A DNA stretch of 29,037 bases from a virus (taxonomy: Duplodnaviria; Heunggongvirae; Uroviricota; Caudoviricetes). Under the pieces are notes generated by a model, which saw nothing but the letters and a program-made list of their open reading frames with translations, had not been told where the DNA came from and did no database searches. The stretch covers positions 1 to 29,037 of IMG/VR virus record IMGVR_UViG_3300045988_046105, one strand, 5' to 3'. A program made the position numbers and the translations under genes. Position 1 is the stretch's first letter; each line of letters starts with the position of its first letter. This document shows, in pieces, positions 17,794-26,325 of this stretch.

Positions 17794-20268
17794 ATGAGAC
17801 AGGAATGTATACAAGCGGTTCAGCAGGCGGCGCAGCGCATGTTAACGGCGCGAGAAATACAGAACATTGAAGACCGCATTTATCGAAATATGCGCTCCAT
17901 TGCTCGTGATGACCCTATGTCGTGGCGACAACTTTCCGAATCAGAGCGGCTATATCGAGCAGCACAATTGGCATCTGAAGAATTACAGCGAGAAGCGGCA
18001 TTAAAGAAACGTCGTGTGGCTCTCACTATAGCCGCGCGTCAGAGATTGGATAAATTTATCAATAGCTATCAAGGGGCTGATGGGAAACTTGGCGCTCTTA
18101 ACCGTACTATAGCTTTTAATGCAGACGGTAAATCTAATTTCCTCTCTGTTGAATCCAGAACAAAAGCCACCCGTGATTATGCATTGAGTCAATTGCAGGA
18201 GGCATTCGAAGCAGTTGATCCTCGCTTTTTTGGTCTGTTTGAAGATGAAGCGGGCGTACGTGACCTGGTATATGAAATGCGGGGGCAAAATACTGGCAAT
18301 GCTAAAGCAAGAAACGGTGCTAAGGCGTGGAGAGAAGTTACAGAGCTGCTGCGCCGCCGGTTTAATGATGCTGGTGGGGACATTGGCTATCTCGAAAACT
18401 GGGGGATCCCTCAACATCATTCTATGGAAAAGGTTGGGGCAGTATCAAAGGATAAGTGGGTTAGCGATGTTATAGGTAAGCTGGATCGCAAATATTATAT
18501 CCGAGCCGATGGACAACTGATGAACGATGCCGAGTTGTCTTCATTTCTTGGAGAGGCTTATAACACGATCGCTACTGGTGGGCTGAATAAGCTTACTGAT
18601 ACCGGAATGCGAATTTCCGGCGCACGTGCTAACCGTGGTAATGCATCACGACAGATACATTTCAAAGATGCAGATTCCTATCTGCAATATCAGCAACTTT
18701 ATGGCGATCGCTCTCTATGGGAAATCATGGTCGGTCACCTGGAAGGTATCAGTAAAGATATTGCACTGGTGGAAACATATGGCCCAAACCCCGATCATGT
18801 TTTCCGCTCTCTTCTTGATCAGGTGAAGGCAGAAACGGCAACAGCTAACCCGAGTAAAACCGGTAAAGTCGAGCGGCTGGCGAACAACACAGAGAATCTG
18901 TACAACTTTATTTCCGGAAAGACACAGCCTGTAGCGAATCCGCACATCGCGCGATGGTCTGACAATATCCGCAACTGGCTGGTTGCCAGCAGACTCGGAT
19001 CCGCGTTGCTGTCATCGTTCTCTGATCTTGGAACCATGTATCTGTCTGCGAAGGTTACCAACCTTCCAATGAACCAGTTATTCCGCAACCAGCTTGAAGC
19101 TATGGACCCAACGAACCGTACAGAACTTGCGCGGGCTCGCCGCGCTGGTCTGGCGATGGAATCTCTACTTGGCAGCGTTAACCGCTGGGCGATGGATAAT
19201 ATGGGGCCGTCAGTGTCTCGTTGGGCGGCAACGGCGGTAATGCGTGCCAGTGGGCTTACAGCATGGTCAGATGCGCACAAGCGCGCCTATGGCGTAACCA
19301 TGATGGGAAGCCTGGGAGAAGTAGTGTCACGGACACCAGACCTTCGTAGCCTCGATGACTCTGATTTTCGTATCCTGAAAAGCAAAGGGATTACTGACAC
19401 AGACTGGAGCGTATGGAAGCTGGCGAAACAGGAGGACTGGGGGAACGGTAATAATACGATGCTGACACCGGAAAGCATTATGCGTATCCCTGATTCAGCA
19501 GTTAAACATCTTGGTGAGCCTGAACGCGTGAAATTTGAGGCAATGCGTAAACTGCTCGGTGCCGTAACTGAAGAAGTTGATATGGCTGTTATTACACCGG
19601 GAGCACGTGAGCAACTGATAACCGGTTCTGGTATTCAGCGTGGAACATGGAAAGGTGAATTAACGAGAAGTGTTTTCCTGTTTAAATCGTTCCCTATCTC
19701 GGTTGTTATGCGTCACTGGTCACGCGCTATGGGTATGCCGTCTGCTGGTGGGCGTGCGGCATATATTGCGACGTTTATTGCCAGTACGACCATTCTTGGC
19801 GCTTTGTCGCAGCAACTTAACGACCTTGCGTCTGGTCGTAATCCTCGAGAGATGACAGGAGAAGATGCCGCAAAATTCTGGCTTGGTGCTCTACTGAAAG
19901 GTGGTGGTCTTGGCCTTTACGGTGACTTTTTATTGTCAGATCACACTAGGTACGGAAGCGGCGCGCTGGCGTCGATGCTTGGCCCGGTAGCTGGTCTGGT
20001 TGATGACGTAGTGAAGATTGCTCAGGGCATACCGTTAAATGCTGTGGAAGGGAAGAGTGAGCAGACTGGTGGTGATCTGGTGAAGCTGGGGAAAGGTTTG
20101 ATGCCTGGTGCGAATCTCTGGTACTTGAAGGCGGCTCTCGATCACATGATCTTTAACCAGATGCAGGAGTATTTTTCACCAGGCTATTTGCGTAAAATGG
20201 AGCAACGTTCGAAGAAAGAGTTTAACCAGACATACTGGTGGCGACCACAGGATGTCACTCCGCAATAA
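17794..20268 (+). CDS. internal virion protein D-like (gp16 position)
   Basis: 824 aa, SD GAGAGG; last large gene of virion block. Confidence 0.55.
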   Translation: MRQECIQAVQQAAQRMLTAREIQNIEDRIYRNMRSIARDDPMSWRQLSESERLYRAAQLASEELQREAALKKRRVALTIAARQRLDKFINSYQGADGKLGALNRTIAFNADGKSNFLSVESRTKATRDYALSQLQEAFEAVDPRFFGLFEDEAGVRDLVYEMRGQNTGNAKARNGAKAWREVTELLRRRFNDAGGDIGYLENWGIPQHHSMEKVGAVSKDKWVSDVIGKLDRKYYIRADGQLMNDAELSSFLGEAYNTIATGGLNKLTDTGMRISGARANRGNASRQIHFKDADSYLQYQQLYGDRSLWEIMVGHLEGISKDIALVETYGPNPDHVFRSLLDQVKAETATANPSKTGKVERLANNTENLYNFISGKTQPVANPHIARWSDNIRNWLVASRLGSALLSSFSDLGTMYLSAKVTNLPMNQLFRNQLEAMDPTNRTELARARRAGLAMESLLGSVNRWAMDNMGPSVSRWAATAVMRASGLTAWSDAHKRAYGVTMMGSLGEVVSRTPDLRSLDDSDFRILKSKGITDTDWSVWKLAKQEDWGNGNNTMLTPESIMRIPDSAVKHLGEPERVKFEAMRKLLGAVTEEVDMAVITPGAREQLITGSGIQRGTWKGELTRSVFLFKSFPISVVMRHWSRAMGMPSAGGRAAYIATFIASTTILGALSQQLNDLASGRNPREMTGEDAAKFWLGALLKGGGLGLYGDFLLSDHTRYGSGALASMLGPVAGLVDDVVKIAQGIPLNAVEGKSEQTGGDLVKLGKGLMPGANLWYLKAALDHMIFNQMQEYFSPGYLRKMEQRSKKEFNQTYWWRPQDVTPQ

Positions 20269-20487
20269 AAGGAGATATGATAGTTCAAATAACTTTTATT
20301 GTACTAATATGTGCAGCGTTTTTATGCTATTCATACATTTTGATAAAAATGGGTTTCAATTGGAATCTCTGTTGCGTGCAGCGGCATGGTTCGGCTTTGT
20401 AGTATTCGGAATTGTATTGTTCGGAAGAATAATAAAATAACTAGTTAATTTGTGGATTGGTGCTGTTTTTCCATGATAGGGGTAATT

Positions 20488-20868
20488 ATGAGAAAAGTAT
20501 TTTTGATTTTTGGATTTATGCTTCTCGTTGGATGCCAGTCAGCTGCACAGTTTGAAAGAAATATGCTTACGTGGCGCGGGCAGAGTATAGACGCAATGGT
20601 TCAGCAGTGGGGGTATCCTCAGGGAGAGCTTACATCTCCAGATGGAAACAGAGTGTATGTTTACTCAAGCTCTGGTAGTTATAACGTACCACAAACCACA
20701 ACGTATAATACTACGTCTAATCTAATTGGTAATACTATATATTCAAACACATACGCAACAACTGATGGCGGTTATACACTCCATTTCAGTTGCTCTGTTT
20801 ACGTTGAGTTTGGTGCTGATAAGATTATTAAAAATGTTACATGGCGCGGTAATAATTGCGTTGCGTGA
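20488..20868 (+). CDS. lipoprotein (moron; candidate superinfection-exclusion / receptor-masking factor)
   Basis: ATG 20488 with AGGGG SD; signal peptide MRKVFLIFGFMLLVGC with lipobox LVGC; AT-rich gene unlike flanking virion genes; stop inside palindrome copy 3. Confidence 0.6.
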   Translation: MRKVFLIFGFMLLVGCQSAAQFERNMLTWRGQSIDAMVQQWGYPQGELTSPDGNRVYVYSSSGSYNVPQTTTYNTTSNLIGNTIYSNTYATTDGGYTLHFSCSVYVEFGADKIIKNVTWRGNNCVA

Positions 20869-21154: not shown

Positions 21155-21694
21155 TTACCAAAACTTGTACCACGGGGATTTATCCTTCAATGGACAATCC
21201 TTCCATCGTGTGGCCAACCATTCATATTCTTTAAAATATGTGTTTATGTTTTCTTTTTCTCTAATGGCTTGTATAAGAGGTAGCGCAATCTGATAGTTAT
21301 TTACAACGGAGCTGTAAAATACTTCCTTAATCATGGTCTCATCATAAGTTTTCCGCTTCACGCTCACAGCCATGCGTTCGTAGAAACCTAGACAGTAAAT
21401 TATTTCTCTCTTCTCTGTCTTTTCTTCATCCGTAAGATCAGCCTGCCCATTGCTTGGATACATATAAGAGCGGAATGATTTGTTCGATTCGTGAATGCGG
21501 CGCATAGTAGATAGGCCTTTCTTATAATCTACATCAAACCTGCTTTCACCAAGGAATACTGAAGTGTGTACTTTTCTCGCTGTATTTACATTATAAATAA
21601 TAGTAGCGATAGCTATGAACAAGCCAAGCGAAACCGCGACTGCACTTACGATTTGAGCCACAGCCATGGCAAATTGCATTTCTTCACTTAACAC
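21155..21694 (-). CDS. membrane-anchored protein with ~150-aa predicted cytoplasmic domain (candidate exclusion/abortive-infection factor)
   Basis: GTG 21694 with GGAGA SD 6 nt upstream (alternative ATG 21679). One long N-terminal TM helix followed by basic residues. AT-rich. No family recognised. Confidence 0.55.
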   Translation of the reverse strand: MLSEEMQFAMAVAQIVSAVAVSLGLFIAIATIIYNVNTARKVHTSVFLGESRFDVDYKKGLSTMRRIHESNKSFRSYMYPSNGQADLTDEEKTEKREIIYCLGFYERMAVSVKRKTYDETMIKEVFYSSVVNNYQIALPLIQAIREKENINTYFKEYEWLATRWKDCPLKDKSPWYKFW

Positions 21695-21822: not shown

Positions 21823-21839
21823 ATCACCCGTGAGGTAAT
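21823..21839. promoter_or_regulatory. operator-like palindrome ATCACC-CGTGA-GGTAAT (site S7) overlapping predicted -10/+1 of the 21155..21694 promoter
   Basis: Read directly; minus-strand promoter TGTACA-N18-TACTAT predicted by eye. Confidence 0.4.
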
Positions 21840-21903: not shown

Positions 21904-22596
21904 TCAGAAGAACCCTGCTTTGTCGTTGATGTACTCCGCGTGCGTCTGGATATCACGCAGGCATTTGCTCACACCAACGATGTAGCAGAACATGGTGGTC
22001 AGCTCCGCCGCCGCGCCCGATACATCGTGCCCGTCTTCCTGTAACTGGTTCAGCAGATTCATCAGCAGTGAGTTTTCCGTCAGGCCGAGAACACCAGACG
22101 GCGAGTGAATCAGGCTGCGGTAGCCGGGCTTCAGTGGGGCGCTGTAGGTTTTGTTCTCTATCTTCATTGCCTGCATCACTGCTGATGCTGTGGCGTTGGC
22201 TACCTGGTCGGCAACCATCTTTATGCGTTCTTCCTGCGGGAGCGAGTTTTTAATGTAACTTCCGGTGCGGCGGATCTGAGGAAGAACCTCACCTGTAACC
22301 CATTCAAGAAATCTGAATGCTCTCGTTCCCTCAGTCATTGCCTCTTTGCAACGCAGAATAAGGATGTAGAGACCTGATTCTGAAACGATGGATAGTTCTT
22401 GTATTCCACCAGGGGTCTGTATTGAATACAGCCCCTTTTTGTTCCAGCCTTTTTTATCAAGTTTTCTCGCTTGTGTAACATCAATATTCAAAGCATTGCA
22501 CACATCTTTGGTGACAAACCAAGGTTCTCCGTCAATCATGAACATACGGATCTGGCAGGATGACTCAAAGGAAAAGATGGAAGGTTTGGTATTCAT
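21904..22596 (-). CDS. Bro-N domain protein with distinct ~80-aa C-terminal domain (antirepressor-like)
   Basis: ATG 22596 with AAGGTGA SD (track ORF extends to 22641 via non-ATG start). N-terminus FESSCQIRMFMIDGEPWFVTKDV...GLYILILRCKEAMTEGTRAFRFLEWVTGEVLPQIRRTG matches the Bro-N pattern (recollection); C-terminal domain is paralogous to 23743..24000. Confidence 0.75.
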   Translation of the reverse strand: MNTKPSIFSFESSCQIRMFMIDGEPWFVTKDVCNALNIDVTQARKLDKKGWNKKGLYSIQTPGGIQELSIVSESGLYILILRCKEAMTEGTRAFRFLEWVTGEVLPQIRRTGSYIKNSLPQEERIKMVADQVANATASAVMQAMKIENKTYSAPLKPGYRSLIHSPSGVLGLTENSLLMNLLNQLQEDGHDVSGAAAELTTMFCYIVGVSKCLRDIQTHAEYINDKAGFF

Positions 22597-22745
22597 GGCG
22601 ATCACCTTTGTAGTTAGGTTAATCACCACCGCTGAGACCAATCAGATGGTGGTGAACTGTGCAGAGTTGGTCTTACCGGCTACAAAGGAACCCGGCGCAC
22701 CTTTCGGTGCCCCCACACAGCCCACCATAGAATAGGTGCGCTTTA

Positions 22746-22843
22746 CACATAAAAAAACCGCTTATGCGGCATATGTGCCTCTGTAGTAATCCGGGAGACC
22801 AATCCCGGCACTGGATTTTGCCAGTGCCCGATTACTATGGCAC
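22746..22843 (-). ncRNA. structured 5' leader / candidate small RNA upstream of Bro-N gene, ending in hairpin plus U7
   Basis: Nested helices: GTGCC(22775-79)/GGCAC(22839-43) and GTAATC/GATTAC enclose two stem-loops (CCGGGA-N6-TCCCGG; GGCACTGG-N6-CCAGTGCC); then CCGC-N4-GCGG plus U7 (22751-22769). The 69-aa ORF over this region has no ATG and spans promoter elements. Confidence 0.35.
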
Positions 22844-22862: not shown

Positions 22863-22879
22863 TTTACCGCAAAGGTAAT
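22863..22879. promoter_or_regulatory. operator-like palindrome TTTACC-GCAAA-GGTAAT (site S1) overlapping -10/+1 of predicted Bro-N promoter
   Basis: Read directly; minus-strand promoter TTGATT-N18/19-TATCAT predicted by eye. Confidence 0.45.
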
Positions 22880-22955
22880 GATAAGCGCGGATAAATATTA
22901 AAATCAACCGTATTTGGTTGATTGCGTTTAACGCTTGATCACCTGAAAGCAAGAT

Positions 22956-22972
22956 ATTACCTTTAAGGTAAT
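22956..22972. promoter_or_regulatory. operator-like palindrome ATTACC-TTTAA-GGTAAT (site S2) just upstream of RBS of 22992..23720, plus half-site ATCACC-TGAAA at 22938-22948
   Basis: Read directly; perfect 6-5-6 dyad. Confidence 0.45.
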
Positions 22973-22991
22973 GTTATTGTGAGGAAAAGCA

Positions 22992-23720
22992 ATGGAAGTT
23001 TTCTGGATAGTTGTTGGTGTGGTTGCGGTGATTATTTACGTTATCAACCAGAACAAGACTAAGATCTCTGATCGTACGGTCGTTAATCATAACAAAACGA
23101 TAAAGACCGAAGATGGGGAGATAACGATTAATCGTACACAGGTGATAGAACACACCTCTACTCAGTTTCAAAAAACTGGAGGTAATGCGCCTAATATTTC
23201 CGCACCTCCTGCTTATGATAGTGCGGTAATCCAGACATATTATAAACAGCAGGAGTTAGCAAAAGAGAGGCAACTGATTCAGCCAAAGCCGTTTACAGCT
23301 GAGCTTCCACCTGGAGTGTCAATGCGTCCGGCATATCATGGAAGATTCCCTGGTGATGACATATCGTCTCAGTCATCTAAAAAAGCACCTCAGGCAGTAT
23401 CAGAGCCAGCAAGAATACCTTCTGTATCGCCGCCAAAAGAAGAATCAGCTAACAGAGTTTCAAGTGGTAGCAAGCAGTGCTTGCGATGCAGAATAAACCT
23501 ACCATATGAAAAATTCAGGAAATCGTCAAAAAATCCAGATGGATTGACTAAGTGGTGTGCAAGGTGTCTCGATGGCCCAAAGAATACACGCCATATGAAG
23601 TGGTGCCCAATTTGTAATGTCCGCAGAAAACGAACAAGCTTTTACCCTAATAATCAAAATGCGGATGGCTTAATGGCATGGTGCAAAACGTGCTGGGACG
23701 AGCACAAAGCGAAACGATAG
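22992..23720 (+). CDS. membrane-anchored protein with Pro-rich linker and tandem C-terminal zinc-ribbon-like repeats
   Basis: SD GAGGA 6 nt upstream; N-terminal TM helix; two repeats of C-x2-C-x17/18-(P/A)DGL-x3-WC-x2-C (CLRC...PDGLTKWCARC and CPIC...ADGLMAWCKTC). Confidence 0.6.
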   Translation: MEVFWIVVGVVAVIIYVINQNKTKISDRTVVNHNKTIKTEDGEITINRTQVIEHTSTQFQKTGGNAPNISAPPAYDSAVIQTYYKQQELAKERQLIQPKPFTAELPPGVSMRPAYHGRFPGDDISSQSSKKAPQAVSEPARIPSVSPPKEESANRVSSGSKQCLRCRINLPYEKFRKSSKNPDGLTKWCARCLDGPKNTRHMKWCPICNVRRKRTSFYPNNQNADGLMAWCKTCWDEHKAKR

Positions 23721-23744
23721 GCCGCTCTTGCGGCCTTTAAATTT
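23720..23744 (+). terminator. terminator hairpin between convergent genes
   Basis: GGCCGC-TCTT-GCGGCC followed by TTTAAATTT. Confidence 0.5.
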
Positions 23745-24000
23745 ACCGGGTTTGTTTTCGTAATTGTTCGGCACAATAGTCGAGATGTGTTTGCAGATCC
23801 CGCATAGACATCTGTGAGCTGGTGACGTAGTTAATCAGTGCAGTCAGTTCGGCAAGTGGGCCATCGACATTAAATCCATCCTTATCGAGATCCCGGAGTA
23901 ATTTCATCAAGTGCGATCCCTCCACCAGTGACCTGACGCCTCCCGGCGTGTGAATCCTTTCGGTAAATCCGTCTTCCAGTGGATAGTGATACCGCTGCAT
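23743..24000 (-). CDS. small protein (85 aa) paralogous to the C-terminal domain of the Bro-N protein; predicted SOS-inducible antirepressor-like factor
   Basis: ATG 24000 with GGAGA SD 8 nt upstream (track ORF starts further upstream at a non-ATG). Roughly 45 percent identity by eye to the Bro-N C-terminal region. LexA-box-like palindrome 22 bp upstream. Confidence 0.6.
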   Translation of the reverse strand: MQRYHYPLEDGFTERIHTPGGVRSLVEGSHLMKLLRDLDKDGFNVDGPLAELTALINYVTSSQMSMRDLQTHLDYCAEQLRKQTR

Positions 24001-24021
24001 CTTATCTTCTCCATGCAATAA

Positions 24022-24037
24022 CTGTATATTTATACAG
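24022..24037. promoter_or_regulatory. LexA (SOS) box CTGTATATTTATACAG overlapping predicted -10 of the small-gene promoter
   Basis: Matches CTGT-N8-ACAG with AT-rich spacer (consensus TACTGTATATATATACAGTA); sits on a TATAAAT -10-like element of the minus-strand promoter. Confidence 0.65.
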
Positions 24038-24075
24038 TAGCAAATAATTTGTTTGCTATCCAGCACGTTTTGCAA

Positions 24076-24092
24076 ATTACCTGAAAGGTAAT
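24076..24092. promoter_or_regulatory. operator-like palindrome ATTACC-TGAAA-GGTAAT (site S3); half-site TTTCAGGTAAT at 24132-24142
   Basis: Read directly; perfect 6-5-6 dyad between the small LexA-box gene and the tailspike gene. Confidence 0.45.
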
Positions 24093-24195
24093 ATCTATTC
24101 GTATTTACAGCCTTTTTATCCATATGTGGTTTTTCAGGTAATAGAATAACCAGATATGCGGCGCAACGGGTGCTGCGACTATCTGGAGATTTAAC

Positions 24196-26325
24196 ATGAC
24201 GGTCTCAACCGAAGTTGACCACAACGAATACACCGGTAACGGCGTTACGACATCGTTTCCGTATACTTTTCGAATTTTCAGAAAATCAGACCTGGTTGTT
24301 CAGGTGTCTGACCTGAACGGGAACGTAACAGAATTGGTCCTGGATACCGGTTATACGGTAACTGGGGCGGGCACTTATAGTGGCGGTTCTGTGGTTCTTC
24401 CGTCTCCGCTTGCTACTGGCTGGCGAATTACGATAGATCGTGTGCTTGATGTAGTGCAGGAGACAGACCTTCGCAATCAGGGAAAATTTTTCCCCGAAGT
24501 GCATGAAGATGCCTTTGACTACCTGACGATGCTGATCCAGCAATGTTTTGGGTGGTTCAGACGTGCATTGATGAAGCCCTCTCTGCTTGCAAAATATTAC
24601 GATGCAAAGCAAAACAGAATTTCTAACCTTGCAGATCCATCACTTGAGCAGGATGCTGTAAATAATCGCTCAATGCGTAATTATGTCGATGCTGCAATCG
24701 CCGGGGTTGTTGGTGGTTTTGGTTGGTTTATTCAGTATGGTTCTGGGGCTGTGTACCGAACGTTCCAGGATAAGATGAGAGACACCATTAGTGTTCGTGA
24801 TTTTGGTGCAAAAGGAGACGGCATAACAGATGATACTGTAGCAATTCAAAATGCTATTAATGCAGTACCAGAAGGGGCTATACTTGGATTTTATGGTGGT
24901 GAATTTGTTTTTGATAAGGTTGAATTGTTTAAGCCAATAACATTAGTTGGTGATGCAACGTTAATTCACAACGGATTTAGAATAAAATCTAGCAGAATCC
25001 GATCACTTTTATCTGGCGTTCAGAAATGCAAGGATTACTCCGAGTCTTCAAGAGCATTTTATTGCTATGCAAATGAAGACCAAAGAGATTATGACGATAT
25101 TCAGATTTTATTTAATAGATTTGAAGGTTTCTTTTACTCTACGGCATTTGTTGCAAAAAACTATTATTTGGAGAATGACCCTAATTCAAGAATTGTCAAA
25201 AACACAAAAGTAATAGGGTGTACATCAGTTGCTCCTGATTCTGTAAATGCCGGTCATTTTCAACATATAGGCGTTACAAATGCTGAAACATCACATAACT
25301 CAACTTATGGCGGACAAAATGCAACATCATACAACTTCATTAACCAGAATGGATTTGTAAGGATTATAGGAAATTATGACCATAACAATAGCTATGGTTC
25401 ATGTGAGCTTGAGAACTCAATGGTGAGTAACTCAGTCATATCAGGTAATACGTTTTCGTCATATTTATGGGTGGATGATACAAGTAATGTTACTATTTCT
25501 GGAAATACCGTTTCATCAAGGATCAAAGTAACATCGCAAACTGACGATGTTCATAATATAACCATATCAGCAAATACCACAAAACGGATTACTATAGAGC
25601 AATTTGGAGAATCGCCGACAGGTCTGGTATATGGTGCATTAATTTCCTGCAACACTATTACTGGCGACAGTGATGGAAGTTCAGACATTTTATGTGCGTC
25701 ACTTGTTACAGGTGAAATTTCATCAAATTATTGTCATGGATCAGAAAAAAATATATCAATTGTCCGCCTGGATTCTTCTGATATAACTGTTAGAAACAAT
25801 AAAGGAAACAAAGGATTACTTACAATAAGTAACGATGGTGGAAGGATAATTGAATATGGCAATGATTCTATGGTTCTGTCTGGAAGCATAGATAGCAGAC
25901 ATATACATAATTTATTACATCCAGACACATCGTATTTAGACCTACCGGGGAAATATCTGCACGGAACTAAATATACTGGCAGTATCCCCCCCGGTTCCAC
26001 AGGAACTGTATCACTTCAAATACCATCAGGGGCAAGCCTTGTTTTCAGGGGCGTTTCTATATGGGTTCTAATTAGAGATGTTAGCAATAACAATATATCG
26101 TCATTCAGAATTGATGGTTCATATAGAGTTGTTGGTGGAAGTGTTGGTCTTAGTTTTGCTGATGCTTATTCGAAACTCGGGGTGGATGCAAACTCTATAA
26201 CAGTGTCAAACAATAACAGCACTTCTGGCAATATCAGCATAGCAATTAAAAACACAGATTCATCAAAAACCCTTCAGGTTACTGTTATGCCGGAGGTTTC
26301 AAGCAGGTTAGGTATTGAGGAATAG
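24196..26325 (+). CDS. tailspike protein with beta-helix (pectate-lyase-like) receptor-binding/depolymerase domain
   Basis: 709 aa, SD TGGAGA; conserved-looking N-terminal module then DFGAKGDGITDDTVAIQNAI motif typical of right-handed beta-helix glycanases; C-terminal two-thirds AT-rich with Asn/Ser/Thr-rich repeats. Confidence 0.85.
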   Translation: MTVSTEVDHNEYTGNGVTTSFPYTFRIFRKSDLVVQVSDLNGNVTELVLDTGYTVTGAGTYSGGSVVLPSPLATGWRITIDRVLDVVQETDLRNQGKFFPEVHEDAFDYLTMLIQQCFGWFRRALMKPSLLAKYYDAKQNRISNLADPSLEQDAVNNRSMRNYVDAAIAGVVGGFGWFIQYGSGAVYRTFQDKMRDTISVRDFGAKGDGITDDTVAIQNAINAVPEGAILGFYGGEFVFDKVELFKPITLVGDATLIHNGFRIKSSRIRSLLSGVQKCKDYSESSRAFYCYANEDQRDYDDIQILFNRFEGFFYSTAFVAKNYYLENDPNSRIVKNTKVIGCTSVAPDSVNAGHFQHIGVTNAETSHNSTYGGQNATSYNFINQNGFVRIIGNYDHNNSYGSCELENSMVSNSVISGNTFSSYLWVDDTSNVTISGNTVSSRIKVTSQTDDVHNITISANTTKRITIEQFGESPTGLVYGALISCNTITGDSDGSSDILCASLVTGEISSNYCHGSEKNISIVRLDSSDITVRNNKGNKGLLTISNDGGRIIEYGNDSMVLSGSIDSRHIHNLLHPDTSYLDLPGKYLHGTKYTGSIPPGSTGTVSLQIPSGASLVFRGVSIWVLIRDVSNNNISSFRIDGSYRVVGGSVGLSFADAYSKLGVDANSITVSNNNSTSGNISIAIKNTDSSKTLQVTVMPEVSSRLGIEE

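Follow-up and report, generated by a model that had tools for sequence, protein, structure and literature searches.

What does a small membrane-anchored protein with two zinc ribbons do in a temperate phage, and when is it made? This question is raised by the gene at positions 22,992 to 23,720 (plus strand) of a 29,037-nucleotide stretch of viral DNA (Caudoviricetes; IMG/VR record IMGVR_UViG_3300045988_046105). The whole stretch, here called the window, is an epsilon15-like (Uetakevirus) prophage, and the region is 95.7% identical to phage TL-2011b. A sequence-only reading had described the gene product as a transmembrane helix, a Pro/Ser-rich linker and two copies of a C-x2-C...DG..WC-x2-C motif, encoded divergently from a Bro-N gene. 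We followed up this reading by computational analysis and find that the protein is a new architecture assembled from known parts, the zinc module and the class of phage membrane accessory proteins both being known. In our preferred reading, to which we give a probability of roughly 40%, it is a membrane tether for a polyanion, most likely DNA, that acts once the repressor is gone. The positions of the individual features are collected in Table 1.

Judged from its conservation, the open reading frame is a real protein-coding gene under purifying selection. Its start codon is pinned by the N-terminus ME[VI]FW, which is kept across homologues. A clustered protein search provided 33 homologues, most of them full-length and with eight invariant cysteines; all are named 'hypothetical' and none carries a Pfam domain. 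Measured against homologues, the zinc domain had a ratio of nonsynonymous to synonymous substitution rates (dN/dS) of 0.05-0.09, the N-terminal module (residues 1-55) one of 0.14 and the linker one of 0.4-0.95. One might still suspect a chance reading frame or a decaying remnant, as the record of TL-2011b lists no coding sequence at this site and marks only a misc_feature 'similar to hypothetical protein'. The reading frame in TL-2011b is, however, intact and of the same length, the structured parts evolve at a dN/dS of 0.05-0.14, and at least 80% of the region is present in 129 E. coli genomes. The conservation data thus already refute the absence of a functional gene, which we consider extremely improbable. 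A longer gene, hinted at by the 1089 bp of the TL-2011b misc_feature, was rejected as well, since the frame 5' of the open reading frame is full of stops.

The translation, the structural model and the alignment bore out the proposed architecture. Just two residues precede the N-terminal helix, and the sequence NQNKTK..DR follows it. In 55 of 71 family members the C-terminal flank of the helix was the more positive one. These flank charges favour an N-out/C-in topology, in agreement with the cytoplasmic C-terminus that the sequence-only reading had proposed from the positive residues after the helix. From the positive-inside flank, the eight zinc-ligand cysteines and the cytoplasmic soluble relatives we infer that the bulk of the protein is probably located in the cytoplasm. 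Behind the helix a conserved juxtamembrane segment leads into a variable linker that is predicted to be disordered (residues 56-157 with 14% Pro, 13% Ser, 11% Ala and 9% Gln). Across the family the spacer from the helix to the first cysteine measures 49-144 residues. The C-terminal domain (residues 158-242) was modelled by AlphaFold2 with a predicted local distance difference test score (pLDDT) above 90 within the full-length protein and with a mean of 87 when modelled alone. In the homologue of Yersinia phage YeP5 (L010 1987-2634) a (Lys-Thr)n expansion, KTKTKTKTKTKTKTKT, directly follows the transmembrane helix; the annotated start of this homologue is probably 29 codons too early.

The zinc domain consists of two units, with the motif C163-x2-C166...D183-G184...W188-C189-x2-C192 in the first and C205-x2-C208...D225-G226...W230-C231-x2-C234 in the second. 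All eight cysteines, D183, G184, D225 and both tryptophans are invariant in 27 homologues, and G226 varies (K or E in some). Both units align without gaps at 13 identities over 37 positions (BLASTP E 3e-7). This score was reached in none of 5000 shuffles, including those in which the cysteines were held fixed. By this alignment, the two units are homologous to each other. Over its roughly 85 residues the domain has a net charge of +14, equal to the median of the 71 anchored family members (minimum +7).

Relatives of the zinc units were sought at the sequence and the fold level. The sole Pfam match of the protein was Stc1 (PF12898) with 21.0 bits (E 5e-4, in two stretches), which is below the gathering threshold of 24.8. 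As best fold match in the PDB we obtained the tandem zinc finger of S. pombe Stc1 (2LUY; E 3e-3, probability 0.91). Like Stc1, the protein has eight conserved cysteines in two sequential C-x2-C...C-x2-C units. By these comparisons the zinc units appear to be of the Stc1 type (PF12898-like), a known domain type.

A profile search with the C-terminal domain, which the sequence-only reading had proposed as a check, returned 3059 cluster representatives and revealed Stc1-type and nuclease-fused relatives. We looked in detail at the best 150 of the 3059. Sixty-three of these were at most 260 amino acids long, and 34 of the 63 had an N-terminal hydrophobic helix, nearly all with exactly two units. 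The 85 longer proteins contained arrays of up to 14 C-x2-C motifs, and only one of them had an N-terminal hydrophobic helix. Among 84 relatives without an anchor, Pfam detected Stc1 in 52 (E <= 1e-3), HNH in 13, Endonuclease_7 in 12, Bro-N in two, and KilA-N and T5orf172 in one each; one such relative combines Bro-N, T5orf172 and five zinc units. PHROG matches covered the zinc modules of endonuclease VII families (2e-11; phrog_1035, phrog_2633), and the viral fold matches of the zinc domain were HNH and endonuclease VII proteins. Membrane-tethered zinc ribbons had been called unusual. They are indeed undescribed, but with the helix present in 34 of the 63 short relatives they are a recurrent arrangement. 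In three anchored two-unit relatives from uncultured gut phages (P0086, P0090 and P0137) a long coiled-coil-like stretch replaces the juxtamembrane segment and the linker. Databases name these three automatically 'Meiotic chromosome segregation protein', a name carried over from Stc1.

The protein itself contains no nuclease domain that Pfam would detect as HNH or Endonuclease_7 at E <= 1. It matched none of the anti-phage defence families in PADLOC-DB v2 at E <= 0.1, and an NCBIfam search gave no match. A profile of the N-terminal module (residues 1-60) retrieved just truncated fragments of the protein's own family and no other fusion partners. Over its full length the protein matches phrog_6762 (E 6.3e-151, residues 1-242 on profile positions 1-242 of 242), a family listed with unknown function. 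With Stc1 below threshold, nothing in NCBIfam and PADLOC and a PHROG family of unknown function, the searches assigned the protein to no well-characterised family with an unrelated role, such that the sequence-only reading stands in this respect. Two further candidates were discarded. A sequence search of the PDB gave only an insignificant match to the N-terminus of PacI (E 0.26). Zinc-binding anti-sigma factors (ZAS, zf-HC2) have an N-terminal H-x3-C-x2-C followed by a transmembrane segment, whereas here the transmembrane segment comes first, the sites are all-Cys and Pfam zf-HC2 does not match.

The second part of the question concerns the timing of expression. The intergenic region between the gene and the divergent Bro-N gene is rich in operators, as had been noticed before: in the window the palindrome ATTACC-N5-GGTAAT (<=2 mismatches) was found 8 times compared to 0.89 expected matches, and none of 100 shuffles reached 8. 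One perfect copy overlaps the predicted -10 hexamer of the gene. Besides the two intergenic copies, a perfect one lies at 24076-24092 before the 85-aa gene and one with a single mismatch at 21823-21839 upstream of the DUF4760 gene. The identity of the palindrome can be judged from the prophage of E. coli strain G5, which matches the window exactly over 866 bases (window 22880-23745). Within this prophage region (L015 7654-36313) TTACC-N5-GGTAA with at most one mismatch occurs 14 times compared to 0.76 expected. Two copies fall into the intergenic region of the divergent cI-like and cro-like genes, and two more are located just past cI; copies are also found at the Bro-N, gp19-like and DUF4760 promoters. 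The candidate repressor of the G5 prophage is an HTH protein of 194 aa. Because of the copies between cI and cro, the palindrome appears to be the operator of the immunity repressor (or Cro). An operator that is, by its sequence, of the cI-cro type is placed over the promoter of the gene, as expected for a member of the repressor regulon. Repressor binding would occlude the -10 hexamer, such that the gene is probably silent in lysogens and derepressed along with the antirepressor genes. A LexA box before the gene was not found, and the only perfect box of the region belongs to the gp19-like gene. Repressor-type operators are spread over many promoters of the prophage (window sites 1012, 1030, 4177, 21823, 22863, 22956 and 24076), a dispersal that resembles the scattered C1 operators of phage P1. 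The G5 prophage is defective: it has lost most head genes (two partial pseudogenes, L015 19177-21711) and has kept its immunity and accessory regions including the gene.

The same promoter geometry was shared by six lineages, namely E. coli, Serratia, L070-L076 (a group at 61-63% identity), L078, Pectobacterium and the Providencia-type phages. It consists of TTGAnn, 16-17 nt and TACCTT (TAACCT in the Providencia type), with spacers that have diverged in sequence. In most cassettes 17-20 nt separate the end of the equivalent palindrome from the ATG, compared to about 23-30 nt in Serratia and the Providencia type. In the Pectobacterium prophage the same operator type as in G5 occurs 12 times, including the cro-cI region and the promoter of the gene. 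In the Providencia-type phages the gene carries TAACC-N5-GGTTA instead, which recurs at other accessory promoters of these phages; the operator type therefore tracks the resident phage. The L070-L076 group has a second palindrome, TGTGACATGTCACA, right 5' of the -35 hexamer and about 50-65 nt before the ATG, which is absent from the E. coli version.

This predicted timing bears on the idea that the protein serves superinfection exclusion or defence, i.e. that it is expressed in the lysogen and blocks entry or development of other phages, as a positional analogue of P22 SieA or of the lambda Rex location. The membrane anchor would suit such a role. So would the moron-like cassette, which usually lies opposite to the late genes and adjoins the ejection-protein operon, and the neighbourhood of small membrane proteins, lipoproteins and HicAB. 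A homologue in Aeromonas phage phiARM81mr is located just 3' of cI on the same strand. Against this, the operator over the -10 hexamer in six enterobacterial lineages predicts silence in the lysogen, no PADLOC defence model matched and there is no homology to known exclusion proteins. We therefore regard exclusion by the lysogen as unlikely.

How firmly the gene belongs to its present surroundings can be seen from its distribution. A stretch of about 860 bp (boundaries ~22887 and ~23745), comprising the gene, its upstream region and the terminator hairpin, is missing from phages phiV10 and vB_EcoP_ZX5; this marks the gene as an accessory cassette acquired by insertion. Just 5' of the promoter, several lineages have a terminator-like hairpin with a T run, which lets the cassette appear self-contained. 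Since hairpin, T run and then promoter precede the gene, co-transcription with the upstream antirepressor genes was rejected for most lineages. The genera of the named homologues are Escherichia, Superficieibacter, Enterobacter, Citrobacter, Salmonella, Serratia, Providencia, Pectobacterium and Buttiauxella; tblastn further detected homologues in Aeromonas phage phiARM81mr and in the Yersinia phages YeP4-6. Of 5426 complete E. coli genomes, 133 (~2.5%) contain the gene, among them enterotoxigenic E. coli (ETEC) H10407 and the laboratory strain ML35; a scan of species-representative genomes gave 2 loci only.

At 29 of 39 surveyed loci the last ejection-protein gene follows 1-3 genes downstream, usually convergent with the gene, and at 21 of the 39 Bro-N or gp19-like genes are near. 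At some loci, read from the neighbour sequences, the gene lies between putative lysis/terminase genes and the ejection-protein genes. It was also found within the tail-gene cluster of a siphovirus, in a region of myovirus-like type and in an island that contains resolvases, such that its hosts are podo-, sipho- and myovirus-like prophages. The neighbours are mostly small membrane proteins and lipoproteins, for which the PHROG annotation is almost always 'unknown function'. A HicB/HicA toxin-antitoxin pair lies directly 5' of the gene in the Pectobacterium locus (L013 6446-6892) and in L070. Judged from these gene neighbourhoods, the gene looks like a mobile accessory gene residing in a phage hot spot and not like a fixed part of the antirepressor circuit. 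The proposal that it belongs to the same regulatory circuit as the Bro-N gene is thus supported as far as control is shared, the operator being common with the cI-cro, Bro-N, gp19-like and DUF4760 promoters. The membership is not obligate, however, since the self-contained cassette is absent from phiV10 and vB_EcoP_ZX5 and elsewhere has no antirepressor nearby.

In the mechanism that we favour, an autonomous cassette, accessory to its temperate phages and consisting of the gene with a terminator and a predicted promoter under operator control, would provide a single-pass inner-membrane protein. Its N-terminal helix would serve as anchor and nearly the whole chain would be cytoplasmic. The flexible linker would bear the basic tandem Stc1-type domain, for which two zinc ions held by four cysteines each are predicted. 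In a stable lysogen the immunity repressor on the operator over the -10 hexamer would keep the gene off. Once the repressor is absent or inactivated, upon infection or induction, the gene would be switched on along with the antirepressor genes. The protein would then keep a polyanion, probably DNA, bound to the cytoplasmic side of the membrane. Nucleic acid is the likely ligand because of the charge of +14 and of the nucleases among the fusion partners. Interference with the DNA of competing phages in lytic growth and anchoring of the phage's own genome are the purposes that we would rank highest. A precedent is p16.7 of Bacillus phage phi29, a membrane protein by which the phage DNA is brought to the membrane (PMC4974454). 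A new class of repressor-gated membrane effectors whose nuclease-derived zinc ribbons would capture rival-phage DNA or the host nucleoid, or else sequester the repressor or antirepressor, seems rather doubtful to us.

Several points weigh against the DNA tether. The presumed DNA binding is deduced solely from the charge and from the fusion partners of the module elsewhere. The predicted -10 hexamer TACCTT is weak; it matches at 3 of 6 positions and was missed by a consensus scan. The gene is absent from close relatives and is therefore not needed for basic phage replication. The tether model leaves unexplained why conservation of the juxtamembrane segment matches that of the zinc domain. The phiARM81mr homologue (29% identity) shares the strand of cI and follows it at a distance of 18 nt, for which reason it would be made in lysogens, i.e. 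with the opposite timing. Finally, Stc1 is a LIM-like protein-binding adaptor, so that the ligand could be a protein (PMC2875855).

The last point leads to an alternative in which the LIM-like zinc domain sequesters a switch regulator at the membrane, be it CI, the Bro-N antirepressor, its LexA-controlled paralogue or a host factor, and thereby tunes the decision between lysis and lysogeny. Stc1 and LIM domains act as protein-protein adaptors (PMC2875855), and Bro-N or KilA-N is occasionally a fusion partner of the zinc module. The repressor operator is common to the gene and the antirepressor genes. At 21 of 39 loci Bro-N or gp19-like genes lie within a few genes of the gene, and in the Aeromonas phage the gene follows cI directly, near cro and an antirepressor. 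The closest phages, however, possess Bro-N antirepressor modules without the gene, and the gene also resides in places that have no antirepressor near them, namely tail clusters, lysis/terminase boundaries and an island. The adjacency to antirepressors may be positional, given that the region from ejection to tailspike genes is an accessory hot spot of podoviruses. The charge of +14 and the nuclease-fused relatives moreover point to a nucleic-acid ligand. Overall, sequestration of a regulator appears improbable.

By analogy with P1 Icd and lambda Kil, derepression could also lead to host takeover, whereby the nucleoid or a division or replication factor would be tied to the membrane and division or segregation arrested. 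The repressor-controlled timing agrees with this idea, as does the layout of anchor, Pro/Gln-rich linker and cytoplasmic globular domain, which is ZipA-like. The antirepressor module beside the gene contains C4 antisense RNA and isrK and resembles immI of P1; in P1, immI includes the division inhibitor icd. As the protein has no sequence or fold similarity to known division inhibitors and the case is one of analogy, we deem host takeover less probable still than exclusion or sequestration.

Several known systems can be compared with the protein. Stc1, a eukaryotic adaptor, is soluble and binds Argonaute (PMC2875855), whereas the present protein is anchored, comes from a phage and has a charge of +14. 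The HNH, endonuclease VII and GIY-YIG-like nuclease arrays of phages and giant viruses share its repeat unit by sequence and fold; compared to these, the protein lacks a nuclease domain and combines exactly two units with a membrane anchor. The early protein p16.7 of phi29, a phage with protein-primed replication, has a transmembrane helix at its N-terminus, then a spacer and, in the cytoplasm, a DNA-binding domain with a homeodomain-like fold. There is no sequence or fold relationship between the two, and the present gene is sporadic and not a core gene; the coiled-coil-like spacer of the distant relatives P0086, P0090 and P0137 is a further likeness to p16.7. P22 SieA, HK97 gp15 and T4 Imm are likewise small inner-membrane accessory proteins of phages, and sieA occupies the equivalent genome position in P22, between the ejection-protein genes and the immI antirepressor region. 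The Pfam, PHROG and PADLOC searches revealed no homology of the protein to them, and its predicted repressor control argues against expression in the lysogen. E. coli ZipA is bitopic, and a flexible linker rich in Pro and Gln connects its N-terminal anchor to a globular binding domain at the cytoplasmic C-terminus, but the likeness is confined to topology, as the domains are unrelated.

A literature search turned up nothing pertinent on Stc1 in phages or on any characterised exclusion protein with a membrane-bound zinc ribbon, and we found no prior description of an anchor, juxtamembrane segment, linker and two nuclease-type zinc ribbons under an immunity repressor. Here a zinc module of mobile nucleases sits on a membrane anchor and appears to be wired into the repressor regulon beside an elaborate antirepressor module. 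This makes the protein a candidate for a new membrane-based step in phage development, in phage-phage competition or in the control of the switch. It also gives the widespread bacterial and viral Stc1-type repeat a working function question, namely DNA versus protein binding. If true, a tether for DNA capture or sequestration would be a mechanism that has not been described for temperate enterobacterial phages.

Table 1. Features of the gene and its surroundings (positions in the window)
Feature	Position	Strand	Remarks
Last ejection protein	17794-20268	+	end of structural genes
Likely lipoprotein	20452-20868	+	phrog_3716; homologue from another locus with lipobox
DUF4760 membrane protein	21155-21694	-	N-terminal hydrophobic segment; own operator copy 21823-21839
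Bro-N antirepressor gene	21904-22596	-	divergent from the gene studied
Second candidate operator TTTACCGCAAAGGTAAT	22863-22879		one mismatch; at about +1 of the divergent antirepressor promoter TTGATT-18-TATCAT (22907-22878, -)
Predicted -35 hexamer TTGATC	22935-22940	+	read from sequence
Candidate operator palindrome ATTACCTTTAAGGTAAT	22956-22972		prophage repressor/Cro type; perfect match, 19 nt before ATG
Predicted -10 hexamer TACCTT	22958-22963	+	left half of the operator; A at position 2, T at position 6
Ribosome-binding site GAGGA	22981-22985	+	read from sequence
Coding sequence of the gene	22992-23720	+	242 aa, ATG start; member of phrog_6762
N-terminal transmembrane helix, residues 3-23	22998-23060	+	AlphaFold2 pLDDT ~90; hydrophobicity and flank charges, 71 family members
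Conserved juxtamembrane segment, residues 25-52	23064-23147	+	T39 and G42 invariant; beta-hairpin predicted, low confidence
Variable disordered linker, residues 53-157	23148-23462	+	Pro/Ser/Ala/Gln-rich; pLDDT <50
Zinc-ribbon unit 1, residues 161-194	23472-23573	+	C163, C166, C189, C192
Zinc-ribbon unit 2, residues 203-236	23598-23699	+	C205, C208, C231, C234
Likely bidirectional terminator	23719-23736		GC-rich hairpin AGGCCGC-TCTT-GCGGCCT; ends the gene and the convergent gp19-like gene
gp19-like gene, 85 aa	23743-24000	-	convergent with the gene
Tailspike	24196-26325	+	

Some side observations concern the neighbouring antirepressor module. The Bro-N protein of vB_EcoP_ZX5 was shown by overexpression to be an anti-repressor (PMC9782041). 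In the leader of the Bro-N gene (window 22645-22840, minus strand) Rfam models detected C4 antisense RNA at 22645-22732 (78.6 bits, threshold 45) and isrK at 22751-22827 (74.7 bits, threshold 50), as well as a sub-threshold c4-a1b1 target element at 22788-22840. With C4 and isrK in its leader, the module is therefore P1/P7 immI-like or Gifsy-1 IsrK-like and antisense-RNA controlled (PMC4825925). The 85-aa gp19-like protein is a paralogue of the C-terminus of the Bro-N protein (43% identity, E 1e-16). The mechanically derived 126-aa reading frame at 23743-24123 (minus strand) is over-extended, as its PHROG match begins at residue 42; phiV10, TL-2011b and RefSeq annotate the 85-aa version with its start at 24000. 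With this start, the operator at 24076-24092 and a LexA box lie upstream of the gp19-like gene. The box, CTGTATATTTATACAG, is perfect and located at 24022-24037, about 20-35 nt 5' of the ATG. The box and the paralogy suggest that the gp19-like gene encodes a small Tum-type antirepressor which is induced by SOS and sets off the switch. A switch in which the repressor shuts off the very antirepressor that inactivates it would have positive feedback.

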